64,000 nucleotides of DNA. Source: Bryobacteraceae bacterium (GTDB lineage: Bacteria; Acidobacteriota; Terriglobia; Bryobacterales; Bryobacteraceae). Where the stretch lies: assembly GCA_049519475.1 (NCBI GenBank), contig JBEKQS010000002.1:4293-68292 (forward strand), given 5' to 3'. A program made the position numbers and the translations under genes. This document shows positions 22,520 to 32,404 of the stretch, one piece after another. Position 1 is the first letter of the stretch; each line of letters begins with the position of its first letter. A model generated the notes under the pieces. The model searched no databases, was not told where the DNA came from, and saw only the letters and a list, made by a program, of their open reading frames with translations.

Positions 22520-22558
22520 ACATCGACCGTTCTTGTCGATGTTGGCGCCGCAGGCGCC
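22519..22558. terminator. Hairpins between convergent DUF2283 and sigma-54 activator genes
   Basis: AACATCGAC-cgttctt-GTCGATGTT (9-bp stem) followed by GGCGCC-gca-GGCGCC. Confidence 0.5.
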
Positions 22559-23901
22559 TATCTCAAGTTGAATTTCTTCATCTTGTAGCGCAGCGTATCG
22601 CGCGTGATGCGCAGCAACCGCGCCGCCTGCGTCTGGTTGCCGTTGGTTTTTTCGAGCGCCCGCGCCAGCAGGTTGCGTTCGTTGTCTTCGAGCGAAAGCC
22701 CATCCGTGGGAAGGTCCGTCCTCGCCGGAACCGGCAAGACCGTGCCGGATTCGGGACGCGAAATCGCAATCGGCAGGCTGGCCGGCGTGATCAGCGCCGA
22801 CTCCTCCAGGATCATGGCCCGCTCGATGGCGTTGCGCAACTCGCGCACGTTGCCCGGCCAGTCGTGCCCCGTCAGGAGCCTGGCCGCCGCCTCGTTCAAC
22901 CCTTCGATGTTCCGCTTGAATTTGTGGTTGTAGTGCTCGACGAAAAACTTCGTCAGCGGCACGATGTCCTCGACGCGATCCCTGAGCGGCGGGATGAGAA
23001 TCTGGATCACGTTGAGCCGGAAATACAGATCCTGCCGGAAAGCCCCTTCCTTCACCGCTTCCCGCAGGTTCTTGTTGGTGGCCGCCACCACCCGCAGATC
23101 CAGTTTGATGTCTTTCAAGCCACCCAGCCGCCGGAAAGTCTGCTCCTCCAGCACCCGCAGCAGCTTGGCCTGCAACATCAGCGGGATCTCGCCGATCTCG
23201 TCCAGGAACAGCGTGCCCTTGTCGGCCAGTTCGAAAATGCCCCGTTTTTGCGACCGCGCATCCGTGAACGCACCCTTTTCATACCCGAACAGTTCGCTCT
23301 CCAGAAGCGAATCGGGAATGGCCGCGCAGTTGATCGCGATGAACGGCTCGGCCTGGCGCACGCTCTGGTAATGCAGCGTCTTGGCGATCAGGTCCTTTCC
23401 CGTCCCATTTTCGCCTTCCAGCAGAATCGTGGTGGCTTCGCTGGCCGCCACCCGCCGCACGAAATTCAGTACCTCCCGCATGGGCGGCGATTCGGCGATC
23501 ACTTCCCGCTTCTGGGGCGCCGCCTCGTCGGTGATGTCTTTGATGGTGGCCACCACTCCGCTGAGGTTGCCGGCATCGTCGAACATCTGCGTAGTGCGCA
23601 TCACGACCAGCCGTTCCATGCCGTTGGCGGTGTGCAACCGCACCGTGGAATGAGGCGCGGCGGGTGCCTGGTTCAGCCCCACCAGAACGCCGCAACCGGG
23701 CTCGCAGAGCTCGCACTTAAAAATATCCTGGCAGTGCTTCCCCAGCATTTCTTCCGAGGAAACGCCAAACAACCTCTCCGCCGAGCGGTTGACGCCGGTA
23801 ATCCGAAACTCCGGATCATAAAGGACAAGCGCGTCCGAAAGCTGGTCAAACACGGATTCGAGCACGCTGGTCTTCTGCCAGCCTGGGATGAGCTTAGACA
23901 T
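22558..23901 (-). CDS. Sigma-54-dependent transcriptional activator, PAS-AAA+-HTH (no receiver domain)
   Basis: N-terminal PAS (LSDALVLYDPEFRITGVNRSAERLFG...). AAA+ domain with GENGTGKDLIAKTLH, the GAFTDA loop and ELFGYEKGAF. C-terminal Fis-type HTH (NGNQTQAARLLRITRDTLRYKMKKF). Confidence 0.92.
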   Translation of the reverse strand: MSKLIPGWQKTSVLESVFDQLSDALVLYDPEFRITGVNRSAERLFGVSSEEMLGKHCQDIFKCELCEPGCGVLVGLNQAPAAPHSTVRLHTANGMERLVVMRTTQMFDDAGNLSGVVATIKDITDEAAPQKREVIAESPPMREVLNFVRRVAASEATTILLEGENGTGKDLIAKTLHYQSVRQAEPFIAINCAAIPDSLLESELFGYEKGAFTDARSQKRGIFELADKGTLFLDEIGEIPLMLQAKLLRVLEEQTFRRLGGLKDIKLDLRVVAATNKNLREAVKEGAFRQDLYFRLNVIQILIPPLRDRVEDIVPLTKFFVEHYNHKFKRNIEGLNEAAARLLTGHDWPGNVRELRNAIERAMILEESALITPASLPIAISRPESGTVLPVPARTDLPTDGLSLEDNERNLLARALEKTNGNQTQAARLLRITRDTLRYKMKKFNLR

Positions 23902-24034: not shown

Positions 24035-24050
24035 TGGTGATGCAATTGCT
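24035..24050 (+). promoter_or_regulatory. Sigma-54-like -24/-12 motif upstream of the small cytochrome c gene
   Basis: TGGTGATGCAATTGCT has GG and TTGC in the correct register. The predicted start is about 24061, just before GGAGG (24063-24067) and the ATG at 24072. The -24 half is weak. Confidence 0.35.
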
Positions 24051-24071: not shown

Positions 24072-24302
24072 ATGTCCCATTGGAAAATTGCTTTGCCCGC
24101 TGTCATCCTGCTGGGCGGTTTCCTGGTTTGCTCCACGGCCTCGTATGGCAAGCCGGAATACGCGAAGACTACTAAGAAAGCTTGCACTTACTGTCATGAG
24201 AAGACCGTCGCTGATAAGGACGCCATGAACAAGAACTTGACCGACGCCGGCAAGTATTACGCCAAGAACAAGTCCCTGGACGGCTACGTCGAGAAAAAGT
24301 AA
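24072..24302 (+). CDS. Small secreted monoheme c-type cytochrome (76 aa)
   Basis: Internal ATG preceded by GGAGG. Signal peptide MSHWKIALPAVILLGGFLVCSTASYG. A single CTYCH heme-binding motif. Confidence 0.72.
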   Translation: MSHWKIALPAVILLGGFLVCSTASYGKPEYAKTTKKACTYCHEKTVADKDAMNKNLTDAGKYYAKNKSLDGYVEKK

Positions 24303-24335: not shown

Positions 24336-24782
24336 ATGATGCAAACGGTTCAGCTTTCGATTGCTGATGGCCAATACGCCGCAACGGTTCGGGACGCCCT
24401 GACCCATAGCTGCGCCTGGCACATCCAGCCCGTCGATCGCCCGGACCTCTCGCAGCATTGTGTGATGGTTCTGGACGAACAGTCGTTCAGGCGGCTGCCC
24501 CTCCCCCTCTCCAACCCTGAGCGGGTTGTCTTGATCACCCGTCACGATCTGCAAGATCCTCAGTTCCTTGCTCAGGCTTGGGAAGCCGGGATTGTTTCGG
24601 TTGTCTCGGAGCAAGATCCCCTGAGTACCGTTCTGCTCGCCATCATGGCTGCTGCCTTGCGCATCGCAAAACCCCACAGTTCGGAGGTCGCTAGCGAAAT
24701 AACCCACACAATCAGTGCAGAATCTGCGTCAATAGCCCCACTTCATCGGCATTGCGGCCCAAAACGTTGCAAAACACCATAG
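24336..24782 (+). CDS. Stand-alone degenerate receiver (REC-like) domain protein
   Basis: MMQTVQLSIADGQ... / VMVLDEQS / VVLITRHD / GIVSVVSEQ parallels the CheY-fold beta1/beta3/beta4/beta5 signatures, but the acidic pocket and the conserved Lys are not canonical. The start could be 24309. Confidence 0.55.
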   Translation: MMQTVQLSIADGQYAATVRDALTHSCAWHIQPVDRPDLSQHCVMVLDEQSFRRLPLPLSNPERVVLITRHDLQDPQFLAQAWEAGIVSVVSEQDPLSTVLLAIMAAALRIAKPHSSEVASEITHTISAESASIAPLHRHCGPKRCKTP

Positions 24783-24784
24783 TT

Positions 24785-24816
24785 TGGTTTGCCGCTTGCT
24801 TGGACTTCGGCGTGCA
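24785..24816 (+). promoter_or_regulatory. Two overlapping-register sigma-54-like motifs upstream of the Cys-rich gene
   Basis: TGGTTTGCCGCTTGCT (24785-24800) and TGGACTTCGGCGTGCA (24801-24816). Both have GG/GC spaced as in the consensus. They lie 34-65 nt upstream of the ATG at 24850. Confidence 0.35.
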
Positions 24817-24849: not shown

Positions 24850-25257
24850 ATGGATCGCTCATTAGCAGAACTCGAAGCCCTGGTCCGCAACCGGATCTGC
24901 AGCGTTTGTACCGAACGTACCGTAGAGGGTCAGTGCGGCCTGGAAGAACCCTCCAGTTGCGCCCTGTTCCGCCTCTTTCCCCAAGTGGCCCAAGCCATCC
25001 AGTCTGTCCGGAGCGACGATATCGAGCAGTACATCGAAGCCATTCGCCGCAGCGTCTGCTCGGTTTGCGCCGAGCAGGCTCACGACGGCTCCTGCGAAAC
25101 CCGCCAGCAGGTCCGTTGCGCACTGGATGCCTACTTGCTTTTGGTTGTGGATGCCATCGAGGAAGCCACCGGGAAGACTTTCGATAAACGCGGCTTGGGC
25201 GGTGGAGGTAACGGAATCACCGCCGGCCCAAAGGCCGCAAATTCAACTGTGATATGA
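24850..25257 (+). CDS. Cytoplasmic protein with duplicated C-x2-C-x8-C-x7-C motif (135 aa)
   Basis: AGGAG lies 9 nt upstream. Repeat 1 is ICSVCTERTVEGQCGLEEPSSCALF and repeat 2 is VCSVCAEQAHDGSCETRQQVRCALD. No signal peptide. Confidence 0.7.
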   Translation: MDRSLAELEALVRNRICSVCTERTVEGQCGLEEPSSCALFRLFPQVAQAIQSVRSDDIEQYIEAIRRSVCSVCAEQAHDGSCETRQQVRCALDAYLLLVVDAIEEATGKTFDKRGLGGGGNGITAGPKAANSTVI

Positions 25258-25289: not shown

Positions 25290-25568
25290 ATGAATATCAG
25301 TTTGCTTCCGTTCCTGTATTTCTGGATCGTTCTGGCCCTCGCCGTTTTAGGATTGCTGGTGTGGCGCAAGGTTGTTGCGAGCCATGAAGACGATACCCTG
25401 CACGTGCTTGATGGCGGCGGCGCCGATCAAACCGTGGTTGCCCACAAGCTCGATCAGATCGACAAGTGGGGCAAAATCCTCACCGTGATCGCCTTGGTTT
25501 ACGGTGTCATCCTGGGCGCTGCCTACGCGTATCAGGCCTGGATTCAGACATCCCAAACGGGAGTGTAA
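25290..25568 (+). CDS. Small two-TM membrane protein (92 aa)
   Basis: GGAG RBS. Helices LLPFLYFWIVLALAVLGLLVW and ILTVIALVYGVILGAAYAY. Confidence 0.6.
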   Translation: MNISLLPFLYFWIVLALAVLGLLVWRKVVASHEDDTLHVLDGGGADQTVVAHKLDQIDKWGKILTVIALVYGVILGAAYAYQAWIQTSQTGV

Positions 25569-25573
25569 TTGTC

Positions 25574-27241
25574 ATGAAGAACCGGGCACTTCGAACCATC
25601 AGCCGAGCGCTCGGTTCTGCCCTTTTCGGCCTCGTGCTCGCCCTGGCCGGTGTCAATGCCTCTGCGGCGGACAAGCCCGCTGCGGACTGCGCTTCGTGCC
25701 ACGACCAGGCCCAGAAGCTCGAAAAAAGCGCCCACGCCGGGCTGCCCTGCGACACCTGCCACGAATCCCACGACCAGTATCCTCACCCCGCCAACATCCC
25801 CAAACCCCAGTGCATTACCTGCCACCAGGAGCAGGCTGGCGACTATGCCCTCGGCGTTCACGGCATGGCCCGCAAAAACGGCAATGAAGGCGCCCCCGAT
25901 TGCGCTATGTGCCACGGCAGCGCCCACGAGCTGCTGTTCCCGCAGTCCACGGAGTTTCGCAAGGCTGTGCCGGACACCTGCGGCATGTGCCACAGCGAAG
26001 TCGCCGACCAGTACCGCACCAGCGTGCATGGCCAGGCTCTCGCCCGGGGTGTCACGCAGGCGCCCATCTGCAACGATTGCCACGGCGAGCACAAGATCCT
26101 CAAGCCCGGCAACGCCGCCTCCACCGTCAACGCCGCGCACATTCGCGATACCTGCGGCAGTTGCCACGGGAACGTGCGGCTGTCGCGTGAGTTCGGCCTG
26201 CCATCGGACCGCGTAGTGAGCTTCGACGCGTCTTACCACGGCCTGGCCGACAAGGCCGGCTCCCAAACCGTCGCCAACTGCTCGAGTTGCCACGGTGTGC
26301 ACGACATCCTGCCGTCATCGGATCCCAAGTCGACCGTTAATCCGAAGAACCTGCCCAAGACTTGTGGGCAGTGCCACGCCGGCGCCGGTACCCGTTTCGC
26401 CATCAGCCAGGTGCATCTGACCGAAAAATCCGAAACCGCGGCCCTGCGCTGGGTGCGCCAGTTCTACCTGCTGCTGATCCCCGTCACCATCGGTCTCATG
26501 ATGCTTCACCAGGGCGGCGATTGGATCCGCAAGCTGATCAAACTGCGCTTTCAAGCCCGGATTGCGCAACCCAGCCGGATGGGCGCAGCCGGCCACGGCG
26601 AGCTTCGCATGTTGCCCTTCGAACGCGTCCAGCACGCCGTCATGGCACTCTCGTTCCTCACTCTGATCTGGACCGGCTTCGCCCTGAAATACCCCGACAC
26701 CTGGTGGGCGCGCCCCCTGCTGATGTTGGAAGGCAAGTACGCCGTGCGCAGCCTGATCCATCGCATCGCGGCCGCGGTATTCACGGCCGTCACCGTCACG
26801 CACCTGGTTTCGCTGATCGTCAGCCGCAAACTGCGCCATCACTGGAAAGAGATGCTGCCCAAAATGGATGATCCGCGCGAGGCCCTCGCAGGCTTTGCCT
26901 ACAACCTCGGCTTGGGTTCCGAGCCGCCGTTCCGTTCGCCGCACAGTTACCTCGAGAAGGCCGAATACTGGGCCGTGGTCTGGGGCGCGGTCGTCATGAT
27001 TGCTTCCGGGATTTTTCTTTGGGCCAATACCCTGGTCATGAAATTCCTGCCCAAGAGCTGGCTCGACGTCGCTACATCGGTTCATCTGTTCGAGGCCATC
27101 CTCGCCACCCTGGCGATCGTGGTATGGCACTTCTATTCCGTCATCTTCGATCCCGACGTCTACCCGCTCAACACAGCTTTCCTGACTGGGTATAGTGTAA
27201 AAAAGAAGGAGCGCGAGCCGGTGAAGACCGCGGGAGACTGA
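25574..27241 (+). CDS. Nine-heme c-type cytochrome fused to a multi-TM b-type-cytochrome-like membrane domain (CbcL-like architecture)
   Basis: Internal ATG at 25574 and a signal peptide. Nine CxxCH sites (CASCH, CDTCH, CITCH, CAMCH, CGMCH, CNDCH, CGSCH, CSSCH, CGQCH). Then 5 predicted TM helices with conserved His (RVQHAVMA, LIHRIAAA, SVHLFEAILATLAIVVWH). Confidence 0.85.
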   Translation: MKNRALRTISRALGSALFGLVLALAGVNASAADKPAADCASCHDQAQKLEKSAHAGLPCDTCHESHDQYPHPANIPKPQCITCHQEQAGDYALGVHGMARKNGNEGAPDCAMCHGSAHELLFPQSTEFRKAVPDTCGMCHSEVADQYRTSVHGQALARGVTQAPICNDCHGEHKILKPGNAASTVNAAHIRDTCGSCHGNVRLSREFGLPSDRVVSFDASYHGLADKAGSQTVANCSSCHGVHDILPSSDPKSTVNPKNLPKTCGQCHAGAGTRFAISQVHLTEKSETAALRWVRQFYLLLIPVTIGLMMLHQGGDWIRKLIKLRFQARIAQPSRMGAAGHGELRMLPFERVQHAVMALSFLTLIWTGFALKYPDTWWARPLLMLEGKYAVRSLIHRIAAAVFTAVTVTHLVSLIVSRKLRHHWKEMLPKMDDPREALAGFAYNLGLGSEPPFRSPHSYLEKAEYWAVVWGAVVMIASGIFLWANTLVMKFLPKSWLDVATSVHLFEAILATLAIVVWHFYSVIFDPDVYPLNTAFLTGYSVKKKEREPVKTAGD

Positions 27242-28709: not shown

Positions 28710-28754
28710 CCGGTGGGGCGAGCTTCAGCCAGCCGGGCGAAGCCCGGTTGGTGG

Positions 28755-28782
28755 CACAGGCACTCTTGCCTGTGTTGGTTTT
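28755..28782 (+). terminator. Intrinsic terminator-like hairpin after the NapC/NirT-type gene
   Basis: CACAGGCA-ctct-TGCCTGTG (8-bp perfect stem) followed by TTGGTTTT. Confidence 0.55.
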
Positions 28783-28855
28783 GACGTTTTCACGTGGAAC
28801 ATGGGCTGGTTCAAGCCTGCCCTGCTGAAATTTTCAACAACAGGGTTCCCGCATG

Positions 28856-28908: not shown

Positions 28909-31743
28909 ATGGTTCACCGAATGGCCATTCTGCGGCGCCTGCTGGTAGCAGCCGGACTTCTGGCCGCAGCCCTCCCGGCGCAGCAGTCCAAGCCGCTTCC
29001 CGGCTCCGACGATTGTCTCGGCTGTCATGAAACCGGGGTCCGTGCGGGCAAACGGCAGCCCGGCGTCCCTCCGCCATTCGACGCCGCCGCCCTCAGAGCT
29101 TCCCCGCACGCCGACCTGGAATGCGCCGCCTGCCACGCCGAGCTCGCCAAGAAAGAATTCCCCCATCCCGAAAAGCTGGCCAAAGTGGACTGCGGCACGT
29201 GCCACCCCGACGAGCAGACCCAATACACCGCCAGCCTCCACGGGAAGGCGTCAGCGCGCGGCGACAGCACCGCGCCCGGCTGCAAGACCTGCCATGGCAC
29301 GCACAACATCCTGCTCCCGTCGAACCCCAACTCCCGCACCTCCACCATGCAGATCCCCGGCCTCTGCGGCAGTTGCCACCAGCAAGGCACCGACGTCAGC
29401 AAGACCCACGACATCCCGCAGACCAACATCCTGGGAAACTACACCGACAGTCTCCACGGCCAGGCGCTCTTCACCAAGGGCCTCACCGTCGCCGCCGTCT
29501 GCACCAGTTGCCACACCGCGCACTTCGTGCTGCCGCACACCGACCCGCGCTCGTCCATCTCCAAAGGGAAAATCGCCGAGACCTGCAGGAAGTGCCACGG
29601 ACAGATTGAAGCCGTGCACCGCAAAGTGATCAACGGCCAGCTCTGGGAGTCCGCGCCGAACATGATTCCGGCCTGCGTGGATTGCCACGAGCCGCACAAA
29701 GTGCGGCAGTTCTCCTACACCGAGGGCATGGCGGACAAAGACTGCCAGAGCTGCCACGCCAATCCCAACCTCAAGGTGACCCGCGGCTCGAGGACCGTCT
29801 CGCTGTTCGTCGATAAAGCCGAGATGGACACCTCCATCCACCATAACCCGCCCAGCCACCCCGACACGCCCGTGGCTTGCGTGCAGTGCCATACCGGTGG
29901 CACGCCGTCGCACAAACGGCCTTGCGATACCATGCCGGCGAAGGTCGATTGTTCGATCTGCCACCCGACGCAGGTCAACGACTATCGCGAGAGCACCCAC
30001 GGCACGCTGGCGGCCCAAGGCAGCCATGACGCTCCTACCTGCCAGGATTGCCACAGCCCGCACCACACCCTGGCCAAGAACGACTCGGCGTCGCCGACCT
30101 TCTCGCGCAACGTCCCCGCGCTCTGCGCCCAGTGCCACCAGACCGGCCACAAAGCCGCCCTGCGGTACACCGGCAAGCAAACCAACATCATCGAGAACTA
30201 CACCGAGAGCATCCACGGCAAAGGCCTGCTGCAATCCGGGCTGACCGTCACTGCGGCCTGCACAGCCTGCCACACCGCGCACCGCGAGCTACCCGCCAGC
30301 GACCCGCGCTCCAGCGTCTACCGCTCCAACATCGCCGCTACGTGTGCCCAATGCCATCGCGGCATCTACGAACAATTCACTTCCAGCGTGCACAGCCCAA
30401 CCGTCACCAAGACCAACAAAGAGCTCCCCGTCTGCGCGGATTGCCACTCGGCCCACAGCATCGAACGCACCGACAGCAGTGATTTCCGGCTGAACATCAT
30501 GAACCAGTGCGGCCGCTGCCATCAGCAGATTACCGAAGCTTACTTCGAAACCTTCCACGGCAAGGCTTCCAATCTGGGCGGCCTGAAGACCGCCAAGTGC
30601 TACGACTGCCACGGCTCGCACGACATCCTGCCGGTCACCGACCCGCGCTCCCGCCTCAGCCGCGCCAACATCGTCAACACCTGTGGCAAGTGCCACATGG
30701 GCTCGCACCGCCAGTTCGCCGGATACCTCACCCACGCCACCCACCACGACCCGCAAAAATATCCGTTCCTCTTCTACACCTTCTGGGGCATGACCACCCT
30801 GCTCGTAGGCACGCTTGTAATCTCCGGCACGCACACGCTGGCCTGGCTCCCGCGCTCGCTCCAATACCGCAAATTAGCCCGCAGCGGCCACGACAAAAAC
30901 GGCCTTTACGTGCGCCGCTTCCGCCCGCTTCATCGCAACCTGCACCTGATGGTGATCTCGAGCTTCCTCGGCCTGGCCCTCACCGGCATGACTCTCAAGT
31001 TCTCCTACGCCCCCTGGGCCAAAAAGATCGCTTGGCTGCTGGGAGGCTTCGAATCCGCCAGAGGCTTCGAAGCCGCCGGCCTGATCCACCGTTTCTGCGC
31101 CATCCTCACCTTCACTTATTTCGGCCTGCACCTCTACGACCTGGTGAAGGAGCACCACAAGAGCGGCAAATCCTGGCTGAAGTACATCACCAGTTCCGAG
31201 GGCATGCTGCTTAACGGCCGCGACTGGCGCGAATTCATCGGCTCCATGAAATGGTTCCTGGGCCGCGGCGAGCGTCCCCAATATGGCCGCTGGACCTATT
31301 GGGAAAAATTTGATTACTTCGCCGTTTTTTGGGGCGTGGCCATCATCGGCGGCACCGGCCTGATGCTCTGGTTCCCCGAAGCTTTCACGCGCATCTTCCC
31401 CGGCTGGATGGTGAACGTCGCAACCACCATCCACAGCGACGAAGCCCTGCTGGCGGTCAGTTTCATCTTCGTGATTCACTTCTTCAACACGCACTTCCGC
31501 CCCGAAAAGTTCCCCATCGACACGGTAATTTTCACCACCGGCATGCCGCTCGAAGAATTCAAGCGCGACCGTCCGCGCGAGTACCAGGAGATGGTGGACG
31601 CCGGCAAGTTGGAAGAAAACCTGATGCCCGCCCCGCCCGAGCGTTCGCAACGCTTCTGGCGCCGTCTGGGCTTCACCGCGCTGGGCCTGGGCATGGTGAT
31701 GATCGGGCTGATCCTGTACGCCATGATCTTTGCGTACCGGTAG
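28909..31743 (+). CDS. Nineteen-heme c-type cytochrome fused to a b-type-cytochrome-like membrane domain
   Basis: Starts at ATG 28909 or 28921 (MAILRRLLVAAGLLAAALPAQQ signal). Nineteen CxxCH motifs counted by eye. The C-terminal roughly 330 aa has about 5-6 TM helices with conserved His (RPLHRNLHLMV, LIHRFCAIL, TIHSDEALLAVSFIFVIH). Confidence 0.85.
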   Translation: MVHRMAILRRLLVAAGLLAAALPAQQSKPLPGSDDCLGCHETGVRAGKRQPGVPPPFDAAALRASPHADLECAACHAELAKKEFPHPEKLAKVDCGTCHPDEQTQYTASLHGKASARGDSTAPGCKTCHGTHNILLPSNPNSRTSTMQIPGLCGSCHQQGTDVSKTHDIPQTNILGNYTDSLHGQALFTKGLTVAAVCTSCHTAHFVLPHTDPRSSISKGKIAETCRKCHGQIEAVHRKVINGQLWESAPNMIPACVDCHEPHKVRQFSYTEGMADKDCQSCHANPNLKVTRGSRTVSLFVDKAEMDTSIHHNPPSHPDTPVACVQCHTGGTPSHKRPCDTMPAKVDCSICHPTQVNDYRESTHGTLAAQGSHDAPTCQDCHSPHHTLAKNDSASPTFSRNVPALCAQCHQTGHKAALRYTGKQTNIIENYTESIHGKGLLQSGLTVTAACTACHTAHRELPASDPRSSVYRSNIAATCAQCHRGIYEQFTSSVHSPTVTKTNKELPVCADCHSAHSIERTDSSDFRLNIMNQCGRCHQQITEAYFETFHGKASNLGGLKTAKCYDCHGSHDILPVTDPRSRLSRANIVNTCGKCHMGSHRQFAGYLTHATHHDPQKYPFLFYTFWGMTTLLVGTLVISGTHTLAWLPRSLQYRKLARSGHDKNGLYVRRFRPLHRNLHLMVISSFLGLALTGMTLKFSYAPWAKKIAWLLGGFESARGFEAAGLIHRFCAILTFTYFGLHLYDLVKEHHKSGKSWLKYITSSEGMLLNGRDWREFIGSMKWFLGRGERPQYGRWTYWEKFDYFAVFWGVAIIGGTGLMLWFPEAFTRIFPGWMVNVATTIHSDEALLAVSFIFVIHFFNTHFRPEKFPIDTVIFTTGMPLEEFKRDRPREYQEMVDAGKLEENLMPAPPERSQRFWRRLGFTALGLGMVMIGLILYAMIFAYR

Positions 31744-31838: not shown

Positions 31839-32048
31839 ATGAGCGCTACGCGGACCACTCTGAATCTCGACGACGAACTGCTCCGCGTGGCCCGCCAATA
31901 CACCGGCATTCAGGAAAAGACAGCCCTTATCCACGAAGCCTTGCGGGAGTTGGTTTCAAGAGAAGCAGCCCGCCGCCTGTCTGCTCTTGGCGGGACGATG
32001 CCCAATTTCGACGCGGGACGCCGGCGCAAGTCCGGCAAAGCGCGATGA
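31839..32048 (+). CDS. vapB: Type II antitoxin, VapB family (DUF2191/RHH-like)
   Basis: MSATRTTLNLDDELLRVARQYTGIQEKTALIHEALRELVSREAARRL. ATGA overlap with the PIN gene. Confidence 0.8.
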   Translation: MSATRTTLNLDDELLRVARQYTGIQEKTALIHEALRELVSREAARRLSALGGTMPNFDAGRRRKSGKAR

Positions 32049-32404
32049 TTCTGGTCGACACTTCCGTCTGGATCAATCACTTCCGGAAGAGCGATGTGGG
32101 CCTCGCGCAATTGCTCGCCGACGGCTCCGCCGGTGTGCACCCATTCATCGTTGGTGAACTGGCTTGCGGGAACCTCAAGAACCGTGTCGCTACGCTCGGC
32201 GATCTGGCCAGGTTGCCTCAAACGCCTATCGCCAGCGAAACTGAGGTCCGCCATCTGTTGGAATCGAGCCGTCTGTGGGGTAAGGGCTTGGGCTGGATCG
32301 ATCTACACCTGCTGGCCGCAGCCAGGCTCTCGGGATGGGGCTTCTTCACTGCCGACCGCGCCTTGATGCACGCGGCTGCCGCGATCGGCATTGCCGCGCC
32401 GTAA
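32045..32404 (+). CDS. vapC: Type II toxin, VapC PIN-domain ribonuclease
   Basis: MILVDTSVWINHFRK...HPFIVGELACG...WIDLHLLAAARL...FFTADRAL shows the PIN acidic-residue pattern. Confidence 0.82.
   Translation: MILVDTSVWINHFRKSDVGLAQLLADGSAGVHPFIVGELACGNLKNRVATLGDLARLPQTPIASETEVRHLLESSRLWGKGLGWIDLHLLAAARLSGWGFFTADRALMHAAAAIGIAAP

Follow-up and report, generated by a model that had tools for sequence, protein, structure and literature searches.

In extracellular electron transfer, the exit of electrons from the quinone pool is understood least of all steps, and nearly all studies of it were made in Geobacter and Shewanella. CbcL (GSU0274), a proposed menaquinol oxidase that feeds periplasmic cytochromes, starts with a periplasmic multiheme c domain, to which a six-helix di-heme b domain of the HydC/FdnI type is joined at the C-terminal end. 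In G. sulfurreducens, CbcL combines this six-helix b domain with nine bis-His-ligated c hemes, is required for low-potential acceptors, and passes its electrons to PpcA (PMC9129911, PMC12307469). Homologues of CbcL, MtrH, and MtoC with 3-23 CxxCH motifs, 416-1034 amino acids (aa), and mostly six transmembrane (TM) helices were catalogued in 15 phyla by Zhong & Shi (2018, Front Microbiol, PMC6295460). Here we describe a gene from a Bryobacteraceae bacterium (assembly GCA_049519475.1, contig JBEKQS010000002.1, positions 4,293 to 68,292; this stretch of 64,000 nucleotides is referred to as the window) that encodes 19 CxxCH motifs and a cytochrome b-type membrane domain in a single chain of 944 residues. 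As judged from its sequence, this 19-heme protein is an enlarged member of the CbcL/MtrH/MtoC family, and we consider it likely that it functions as an inner-membrane quinol/quinone:multiheme-cytochrome oxidoreductase at the exit of an extracellular electron transfer chain.

The family placement was made through a homologue listed in Table S2 of that survey (PMC6295460), Solibacteraceae bacterium SbA3 WP_105502606.1 (931 aa, 19 motifs, six TM helices), which stands there together with the 19-heme Ignavibacteria proteins OGU58019.1 and OGV21847.1. WP_105502606.1 is 69% identical to the 19-heme protein over residues 8-944 and has its 19 CxxCH motifs at matching positions, and the open reading frame (ORF) of the SbA3 contig in our locus set (L008) reproduces the tabulated length and motif positions. 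The 19-heme architecture was thus already catalogued, though uncharacterized: the SbA3 orthologue and the Ignavibacteria proteins were tabulated as CbcL/MtrH/MtoC homologues only, neither analyzed nor named, and in a literature search for a named 19-heme Acidobacteria protein only this survey table turned up. The features of the family are present in the 19-heme protein, namely an exported N-terminal multi-CxxCH domain, six C-terminal TM helices, and a HydC/FdnI-like membrane region. However, compared to CbcL, which has 9 hemes, 619 aa, and another motif spacing, it has more than twice the number of hemes and is considerably longer, and it falls outside CbcL in the strict sense (nine hemes, CbcL spacing, ~620 aa). 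MtrH/MtoC proteins (Rhodoferax ferrireducens, Dechloromonas aromatica, Gallionella) share the fusion architecture and the spacing of the last motifs (25, 30, 28), but their hemes number nine, and their genes accompany the outer-membrane genes mtrAB/mtoAB, none of which are found in the 64-kb window.

The reading frame of the gene is uninterrupted (Table 1). A longer reading from an ATG at 28801 is possible, but we prefer the start at 28909, because 94-100% of the 944-aa form is covered by homologues that are themselves 902-956 aa long and because the N-terminus (MVHRMAILRRLLVAAGLLAAALPA) resembles a signal peptide. In a database search, the best homologues (n = 120) were all full length and 67-90% identical to the 19-heme protein, the closest of them (90%) coming from a JGI metagenome; an exact search with the 944-aa sequence turned up no identical record. 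Furthermore, a scan of one genome per species recovered full-length relatives in at least 582 species genomes, with a top match of 74% identity in a Bryobacteraceae metagenome-assembled genome (MAG). The earlier note on this DNA, which was made from the letters alone, had pointed to two genes hidden behind a missed stop codon or a frameshift as one way in which its reading could fail. That adjacent multiheme c and cytochrome b genes were merged by a sequencing or assembly error is, however, so improbable that we rejected it, since the same uninterrupted ORF is present in 120/120 homologues from independent assemblies and a full-length ORF is also found in the at least 582 species genomes, from more than 10 phyla. 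From this conservation of the reading frame, the c/b fusion is real and old.

The count of 19 CxxCH motifs given in the earlier note proved exact. The motifs start at residues 36, 72, 95, 125, 153, 198, 226, 256, 279, 324, 348, 378, 406, 451, 479, 509, 534, 564, and 592; they are confined to residues 36-596, and no variant heme motifs were found in the protein. The CxxCHxxH and H-G patterns that the same note had described are likewise visible in the translation. In all six frames of the window, only 4 CxxCH motifs were found outside the three cytochrome genes and the small cytochrome gene, and 19 motifs in one gene are therefore far above chance. All 19 are kept in 118/120 homologues, and 22 additional His residues of the soluble domain each show a conservation of at least 98% among these homologues. 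There are therefore enough second axial His residues for bis-His ligation of every heme, and all 19 c hemes are, by this conservation, probably bis-His ligated. A Foldseek search with the heme domain returned no significant match.

The heme domain has an internal duplication. By Smith-Waterman alignment, 81 of 218 positions (37%) were identical between residues 66-283 and 318-538, with a score of 430 compared to 46 +/- 8 for shuffled sequences, and the alignment pairs hemes 2-9 with hemes 10-17. BLAST of the protein against itself gave no off-diagonal matches, and the duplication was visible by Smith-Waterman with the shuffle control. Each half of the domain also aligns over nine hemes with the nonaheme domain of the neighboring CbcL-like protein (~35% identity). 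Relatives with 11 hemes, which form the commonest of the longer classes, are colinear with hemes 9-19 and the b domain at 38-50% identity; these 11-heme homologues (e.g. Opitutus terrae Oter_2603, 729 aa) differ from the 19-heme protein in not having the extra 8-heme block. The simplest history suggested by these alignments is an 11-heme ancestor in which one 8-heme block of ~252 aa was duplicated in tandem. The earlier proposal of serial duplication of a di- or tri-heme unit holds in part: the recurring motif spacings 30, 28 and 28, 30 point to an older tri-heme periodicity, but the domain is better described by the duplication of a single large block.

C-terminal of the heme domain, AlphaFold2 predicted six long helices (residues 619-659, 673-697, 716-752, 797-821, 832-862, and 911-942), in line with the five to six TM helices expected beforehand; the model was built from 84 sequences (predicted local distance difference test, pLDDT, 73.6; predicted template modeling score, pTM, 0.45). 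The Pfam family PF01292 (Ni_hydr_CYTB, the FdnI/HydC family) matches residues 636-754 with 31.8 bits against a cut-off of 30.1, and the NCBIfam model TIGR01583 (formate dehydrogenase gamma) gave a sub-threshold match to the membrane domain; PF03264 (NapC/NirT) has no match in the protein. When the b domains of the 19-heme and 9-heme proteins were used as single-sequence queries against the PDB, nothing meaningful came up, and a full-length sequence search with the 19-heme protein gave weak multiheme matches only, so that the link to FdnI needed a family hidden Markov model (HMM) and a fold search. In Foldseek, the top match of the model, and the sole significant one in the PDB, was E. coli FdnI (1kqf_C; E 4.6e-4, probability 1.0, target-normalized TM score 0.77), followed by E. 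coli HyaC, the cytochrome b of hydrogenase-1 (probability 0.8). The family b-domain HMM aligns with E. coli FdnI in two blocks, in which His679, His727, His842, and His857 correspond to FdnI His18, His57, His155, and His169, with one His on each of helices 1 and 2 and two on helix 4, the helix-4 pair being spaced x14 compared to x13 in FdnI. All four His residues are 100% conserved in 88 diverse relatives that carry 0 to 22 hemes. As the earlier note had observed, the His-bearing helices also align with those of the upstream 9-heme paralogue (LIHRF with LIHRI, and TIHSDEALLAVSFIFVIH with SVHLFEAILATLAIVVWH). Thus, its central claim, a single chain joining a long multiheme c domain to a b-type and putatively quinol-interacting membrane domain, is borne out by the PF01292 match, the FdnI fold, and the four invariant axial His residues; by homology and model, the membrane domain is a di-heme cytochrome b of the FdnI/HydC type. 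The second outcome that would have refuted the claim, a C-terminal domain unlike b-type cytochromes and without conserved axial His residues, is likewise contradicted by these results.

The four-helix di-heme b fold and its four axial His residues are shared with FdnI (the gamma subunit of E. coli formate dehydrogenase-N, 1KQF chain C) and HyaC/HydC. However, FdnI is a separate 217-aa subunit that is fed by the Fe-S subunit FdnH, whereas the 19-heme protein has a covalently fused 19-heme electron partner and, in addition to the core, a linker helix on the N-terminal side and one more helix at the C-terminus. Pfam annotation of the neighboring genes revealed no fdn or hya genes near the 19-heme gene. 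The distribution of Lys and Arg among the loops (positive-inside rule) suggests that the heme domain lies outside, that the linker helix runs inward, that the four-helix core starts from the cytoplasm, and that the last helix runs outward. Y797, E799, and K800 (Y797-x-E799-K800), which precede the third core helix at the cytoplasmic face, are ~100% invariant in the 88 relatives, and in the family HMM they align with the FdnI segment Y109-K114, which we take to line the menaquinone site in the 1KQF structure with 2-heptyl-4-hydroxyquinoline N-oxide (HQNO). In the crystal structure of Fdn-N (PDB 1KQF), His18/His169 are the ligands of the cytoplasm-side heme and His57/His155 those of the periplasm-side heme. 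Two further residues, His741 and His862 (window positions 31129-31131 and 31492-31494), are invariant in close homologues and conserved to 70% and 91%, respectively, in the wider family, and have no counterpart among the FdnI ligands.

A b-domain search of 1.84 billion cluster representatives identified 2249 related clusters. Among the best 150 of these, heme counts peaked at 9 and 11, counts of 13-22 were rarer, and 19 hemes occurred in three clusters; one relative, P0136, has 22 hemes in 1005 aa. Desulfobacterota nonaheme proteins with the motif spacing of Geobacter CbcL match the b domain at 36-45% identity (E 1e-54 to 1e-73). In a rough neighbor-joining tree of b domains, the 19-heme proteins clustered together beside the 11-heme proteins, their nearest neighbors, and apart from both the Geobacter-type nonaheme clade and the MtoC-type group, while the 9-heme paralogue of the window formed a separate long branch.

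Among uncultured bacteria of soils, peat, and sediments, the 19-heme branch is common in Acidobacteriota, Eisenbacteria, Zixibacteria, Ignavibacteria, and Gemmatimonadota. We analyzed the best 80 of the at least 582 species-genome loci, and all locus counts refer to these. Exactly 19 CxxCH motifs were present in 70/80 orthologous ORFs, from more than 10 phyla; five had 21 (L038, L059, L074, L082, and L085, from Zixibacteria and Thermoanaerobaculia), and the 5/80 with fewer lie at contig ends or in broken ORFs. A shorter CbcL-like gene is found within 8 kb in 38/80 loci and an ImcH-like gene in 20/80, and many loci hold further genes for 8-22 hemes. L001, a 90%-identical relative, repeats the gene order of the window, as does L004 apart from an insertion; the 19-heme gene directly adjoins the CbcL-like gene in L003 and, in L022 and L051 from other phyla, the ImcH-like gene. 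The locus L072 (5869-18611, an Ignavibacteriales MAG) contains genes for a 13-heme-b protein, the 19-heme-b protein, an ImcH-like protein, Rieske/cytochrome b, and cytochromes with 11, 3, and 14 hemes, a layout that is typical of extracellular electron transfer clusters. The same locus has a 427-aa ORF without a Pfam match that might encode an outer-membrane porin, and L068 and L083 (Bacteroidota) resemble it.

Taken together, the domains suggest how such an exit might operate. Sec export and heme attachment would yield ~590 periplasmic residues with 19 c-type hemes, after which one TM helix would lead the chain back to the cytoplasm, followed by the four-helix FdnI/HydC-type bundle and a sixth helix. 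His727/His842 would hold the periplasm-side heme b and His679/His857 the cytoplasm-side heme b. The b domain would exchange electrons with the menaquinone pool at a site that, by analogy with FdnI, is probably near the cytoplasm-side heme, at Y797-x-E799-K800. Electrons would then pass the membrane via the two b hemes, and the 19-heme chain would carry them far into the periplasm to soluble or outer-membrane cytochromes, so that the protein would be the point at which an extracellular electron transfer chain leaves the inner membrane. If quinol is oxidized on the cytoplasmic side, membrane potential would be consumed, which would be of advantage with acceptors of low potential, and the same has been proposed for CbcL; running in reverse would conserve energy, as Fdn-N does. 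If extended, and with hemes spaced as in known linear multiheme proteins, 19 hemes could cover ~150-190 Å, and a wire that spans much of the periplasm, as the earlier note had suggested, is plausible. With the 9-heme CbcL-like and ImcH-like proteins, the cell would have three alternative quinol-oxidizing exits.

The b domain also bears on electron flow in the opposite direction, in which an MtoC-like quinone reductase would pass electrons from an extracellular or periplasmic donor (Fe(II), reduced humics, or a partner cell) along the 19-heme chain to menaquinone on the cytoplasmic side, in the manner of Fdn-N, and generate proton-motive force. FdnI itself works from the periplasm toward a cytoplasm-side quinone, and the b domain has the FdnI fold with all four FdnI ligands; moreover, the family includes MtoC of Fe(II) oxidizers, and no sequence feature separates the two directions according to Zhong & Shi (PMC6295460). 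We nevertheless regard reverse flow as rather unlikely, since ImcH homologues, which have so far been implicated solely in quinol oxidation (PMC6295460), are co-located in a quarter of the loci (20/80) and the 64-kb window has no Fe(II)-oxidation marker.

The genomic surroundings raise a second alternative. No outer-membrane porin-cytochrome genes lie nearby in the window or in most Bryobacteraceae/Solibacteraceae loci, and a small secreted cytochrome c is encoded in the neighboring operon, as would suit a periplasmic electron hub or store whose 21 hemes buffer quinone-pool electrons for soluble reductases or for small cytochromes such as the upstream mono-heme protein. This appears highly improbable to us, because orthologues in other phyla sit in dense multiheme clusters typical of extracellular electron transfer, and because keeping strictly to 19 hemes, as 70/80 orthologues from different phyla do, suggests that the length or geometry of the chain is constrained rather than its mere capacity. 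A more far-reaching extension, which we hold to be doubtful, is that the 19-heme orthologues are a distinct, horizontally spread class in which a membrane-anchored wire of fixed length crosses most or all of the periplasm and docks directly on an outer-membrane partner, thereby replacing diffusible shuttles; 19 hemes would then reflect selection on length (a 'periplasmic ruler'), and both b hemes would make the protein a membrane-potential-driven quinol oxidase for very low-potential acceptors.

Several points weigh against the proposal that the 19-heme protein is an electron exit of the CbcL/MtrH/MtoC type. The direction of electron flow is unreadable from the sequence, the family being found in both Fe(III) reducers and Fe(II) oxidizers, and the position of the quinone site is based on the analogy with FdnI. 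The AlphaFold2 model is of moderate quality by its pLDDT and pTM, and the PF01292 score is barely over the cut-off. The close relatives found all come from uncultured MAGs, the 19-heme gene often stands alone in the closest Bryobacteraceae/Solibacteraceae loci, and a CxxCH scan of the window found no further multiheme genes or outer-membrane conduit.

The architecture as such will not surprise specialists, as it was tabulated in 2018. What is added here is the identification of FdnI-type ligands, a history of the heme domain as 11 + 8 hemes by duplication, the fixation of 19 hemes across phyla, the linkage with CbcL-like and ImcH-like genes, and the sigma-54 system on the upstream operon. The 19-heme branch could serve as a genomic marker for metal, humic, or electrode respiration in abundant uncultured groups, and the combination of a quinone-site domain with a very long heme wire in one chain is attractive for structural work and bioelectrochemical engineering.

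Table 1. Features of the 19-heme gene and its surroundings (positions in the window)
Feature	Position	Strand	Basis
19-heme c / di-heme b fusion cytochrome gene (CbcL/MtrH/MtoC family), 944 aa	28909..31743	+	Intact ORF, 19 CxxCH, Pfam multiheme families and PF01292, full-length homologues
Predicted Sec signal peptide, residues 1 to ~25	28909..28983	+	Hydrophobic N-terminal segment; AlphaFold2 helix 2-20, then low-confidence 21-26; cleavage site inferred
Repeat copy 1, residues 66-283, hemes 2-9	29104..29757	+	Local alignment to residues 318-538
Repeat copy 2, residues 318-538, hemes 10-17	29860..30522	+	Local alignment to residues 66-283
Predicted membrane domain, residues 619-942: linker TM helix, four-helix FdnI/HydC-type di-heme b core, C-terminal extra TM helix	30763..31734	+	PF01292, FdnI HMM alignment, AlphaFold2, Foldseek, invariant His
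PAS-domain sigma-54 enhancer-binding protein, divergent	22558..23901	-	Pfam PAS, Sigma54_activat, HTH_8; syntenic in L001, L004, L012, L020
Sigma-54 -24/-12 element heading the upstream cytochrome operon	24035..24050	+	Conserved position in L001, L004, L012
Secreted mono-heme cytochrome c, 76 aa, first gene after the sigma-54 promoter	24072..24302	+	Signal peptide and CTYCH; conserved in L004
Conserved ORF, ~148 aa, without Pfam match	24336..24782	+	
Cys-rich cytoplasmic ORF	~24850..25257	+	
Two-TM protein, 92 aa	25290..25568	+	
9-heme c / di-heme b paralogue (CbcL-like)	25574..27241	+	PF01292 E 3e-15, 9 CxxCH
ImcH-like inner-membrane multiheme cytochrome, 485 aa	27252..28709	+	NapC/NrfH-type N-terminal match; motif layout of catalogued ImcH homologues
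Two GC-rich hairpins and U-rich tract, terminator-like	28728..28790	+	RNA fold -48.3 kcal/mol, z = -3.97, 0/200 shuffles as good
TTGACG-N17-TATACA, weak sigma-70-like match, 22 nt 5' of the start codon	28858..28886	+	Seen in the sequence; not reported by consensus scan

The neighborhood of the 19-heme gene reads, in order, as the PAS/sigma-54 activator gene on the minus strand, the mono-heme cytochrome gene, conserved small ORFs, the 9-heme CbcL-like gene, the 485-aa gene, the two hairpins, the 19-heme gene, a VapBC pair, a rhodanese gene, and housekeeping genes. By BLAST, the 9-heme paralogue aligns at 28% identity with the stretch of the 19-heme protein from residue 347 to 887 (E 5e-63). Its ORF opens at a GTG at 25466, and a signal peptide begins at the Met at 25574 (MKNRALRTISRALG...), which is probably the true start. 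Of the small ORFs between 24072 and 25568, the first, second, and fourth recur in related loci. In the long-read MAG contig L004 (4712-6456), the CbcL-like gene is seemingly frameshifted, with its N-terminal hemes in another frame, which is probably an assembly indel.

The 485-aa protein had been labeled NapC-like in the earlier note, and it does have the PF03264 match that the 19-heme protein lacks. We correct this label: the protein is ImcH-like and not a plain NapC, because it has the ImcH motif layout and is 49% identical to the ImcH homologue of Zixibacteria RBG-1. It has two or three N-terminal TM segments, a CX3CH motif (CGETCH) at residue 142, and CxxCH motifs at 167, 216, 318, 435, and 455, which are the positions tabulated for ImcH of Solibacter usitatus and of Zixibacteria RBG-1.

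The hairpins 3' of the ImcH-like stop codon, the second of which carries the U-rich tail, and the promoter-like sequence that follows them make it plausible that the 19-heme gene is transcribed apart from the upstream operon. The earlier suggestion that the gene has its own promoter after a terminator stands insofar as the hairpins and TTGACG-N17-TATACA are present, but the promoter is only consensus-like. A GG-N10-GC search found no sigma-54 element upstream of the 19-heme gene; TGGCAC…TTGC at 28750 was considered as one and rejected, as its spacing is wrong and it is part of a hairpin. Allowing mismatches in a window-wide search for the sigma-54 consensus gave results no better than chance, and the element heading the upstream operon, TGGTGATGCAATTGCT, was found by the GG-N10-GC search and by its conservation in related loci. 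It lies 21 nt before the start codon of the small cytochrome gene, recurs at the same place in L001 and L004 with no or almost no change, and has a near-consensus counterpart in L012 (TGGCACTTGGATTGCT). This arrangement fits, at the level of sequence, with control of the upstream operon by the adjacent PAS/sigma-54 activator, and the pairing of an activator with a -24/-12 element resembles the sigma-54/BccR control of cbcBA in Geobacter. Another GG-N10-GC match, TGGTTTGCCGCTTGCT (24785-24800, plus strand), lies ~50 nt 5' of the Cys-rich ORF that starts near 24850. Directly 3' of the 19-heme gene, a VapB-like antitoxin and a PIN-domain VapC toxin are encoded at 31839-32404 (plus strand), and this pair is also found in the 90%-identical L001 and L002.

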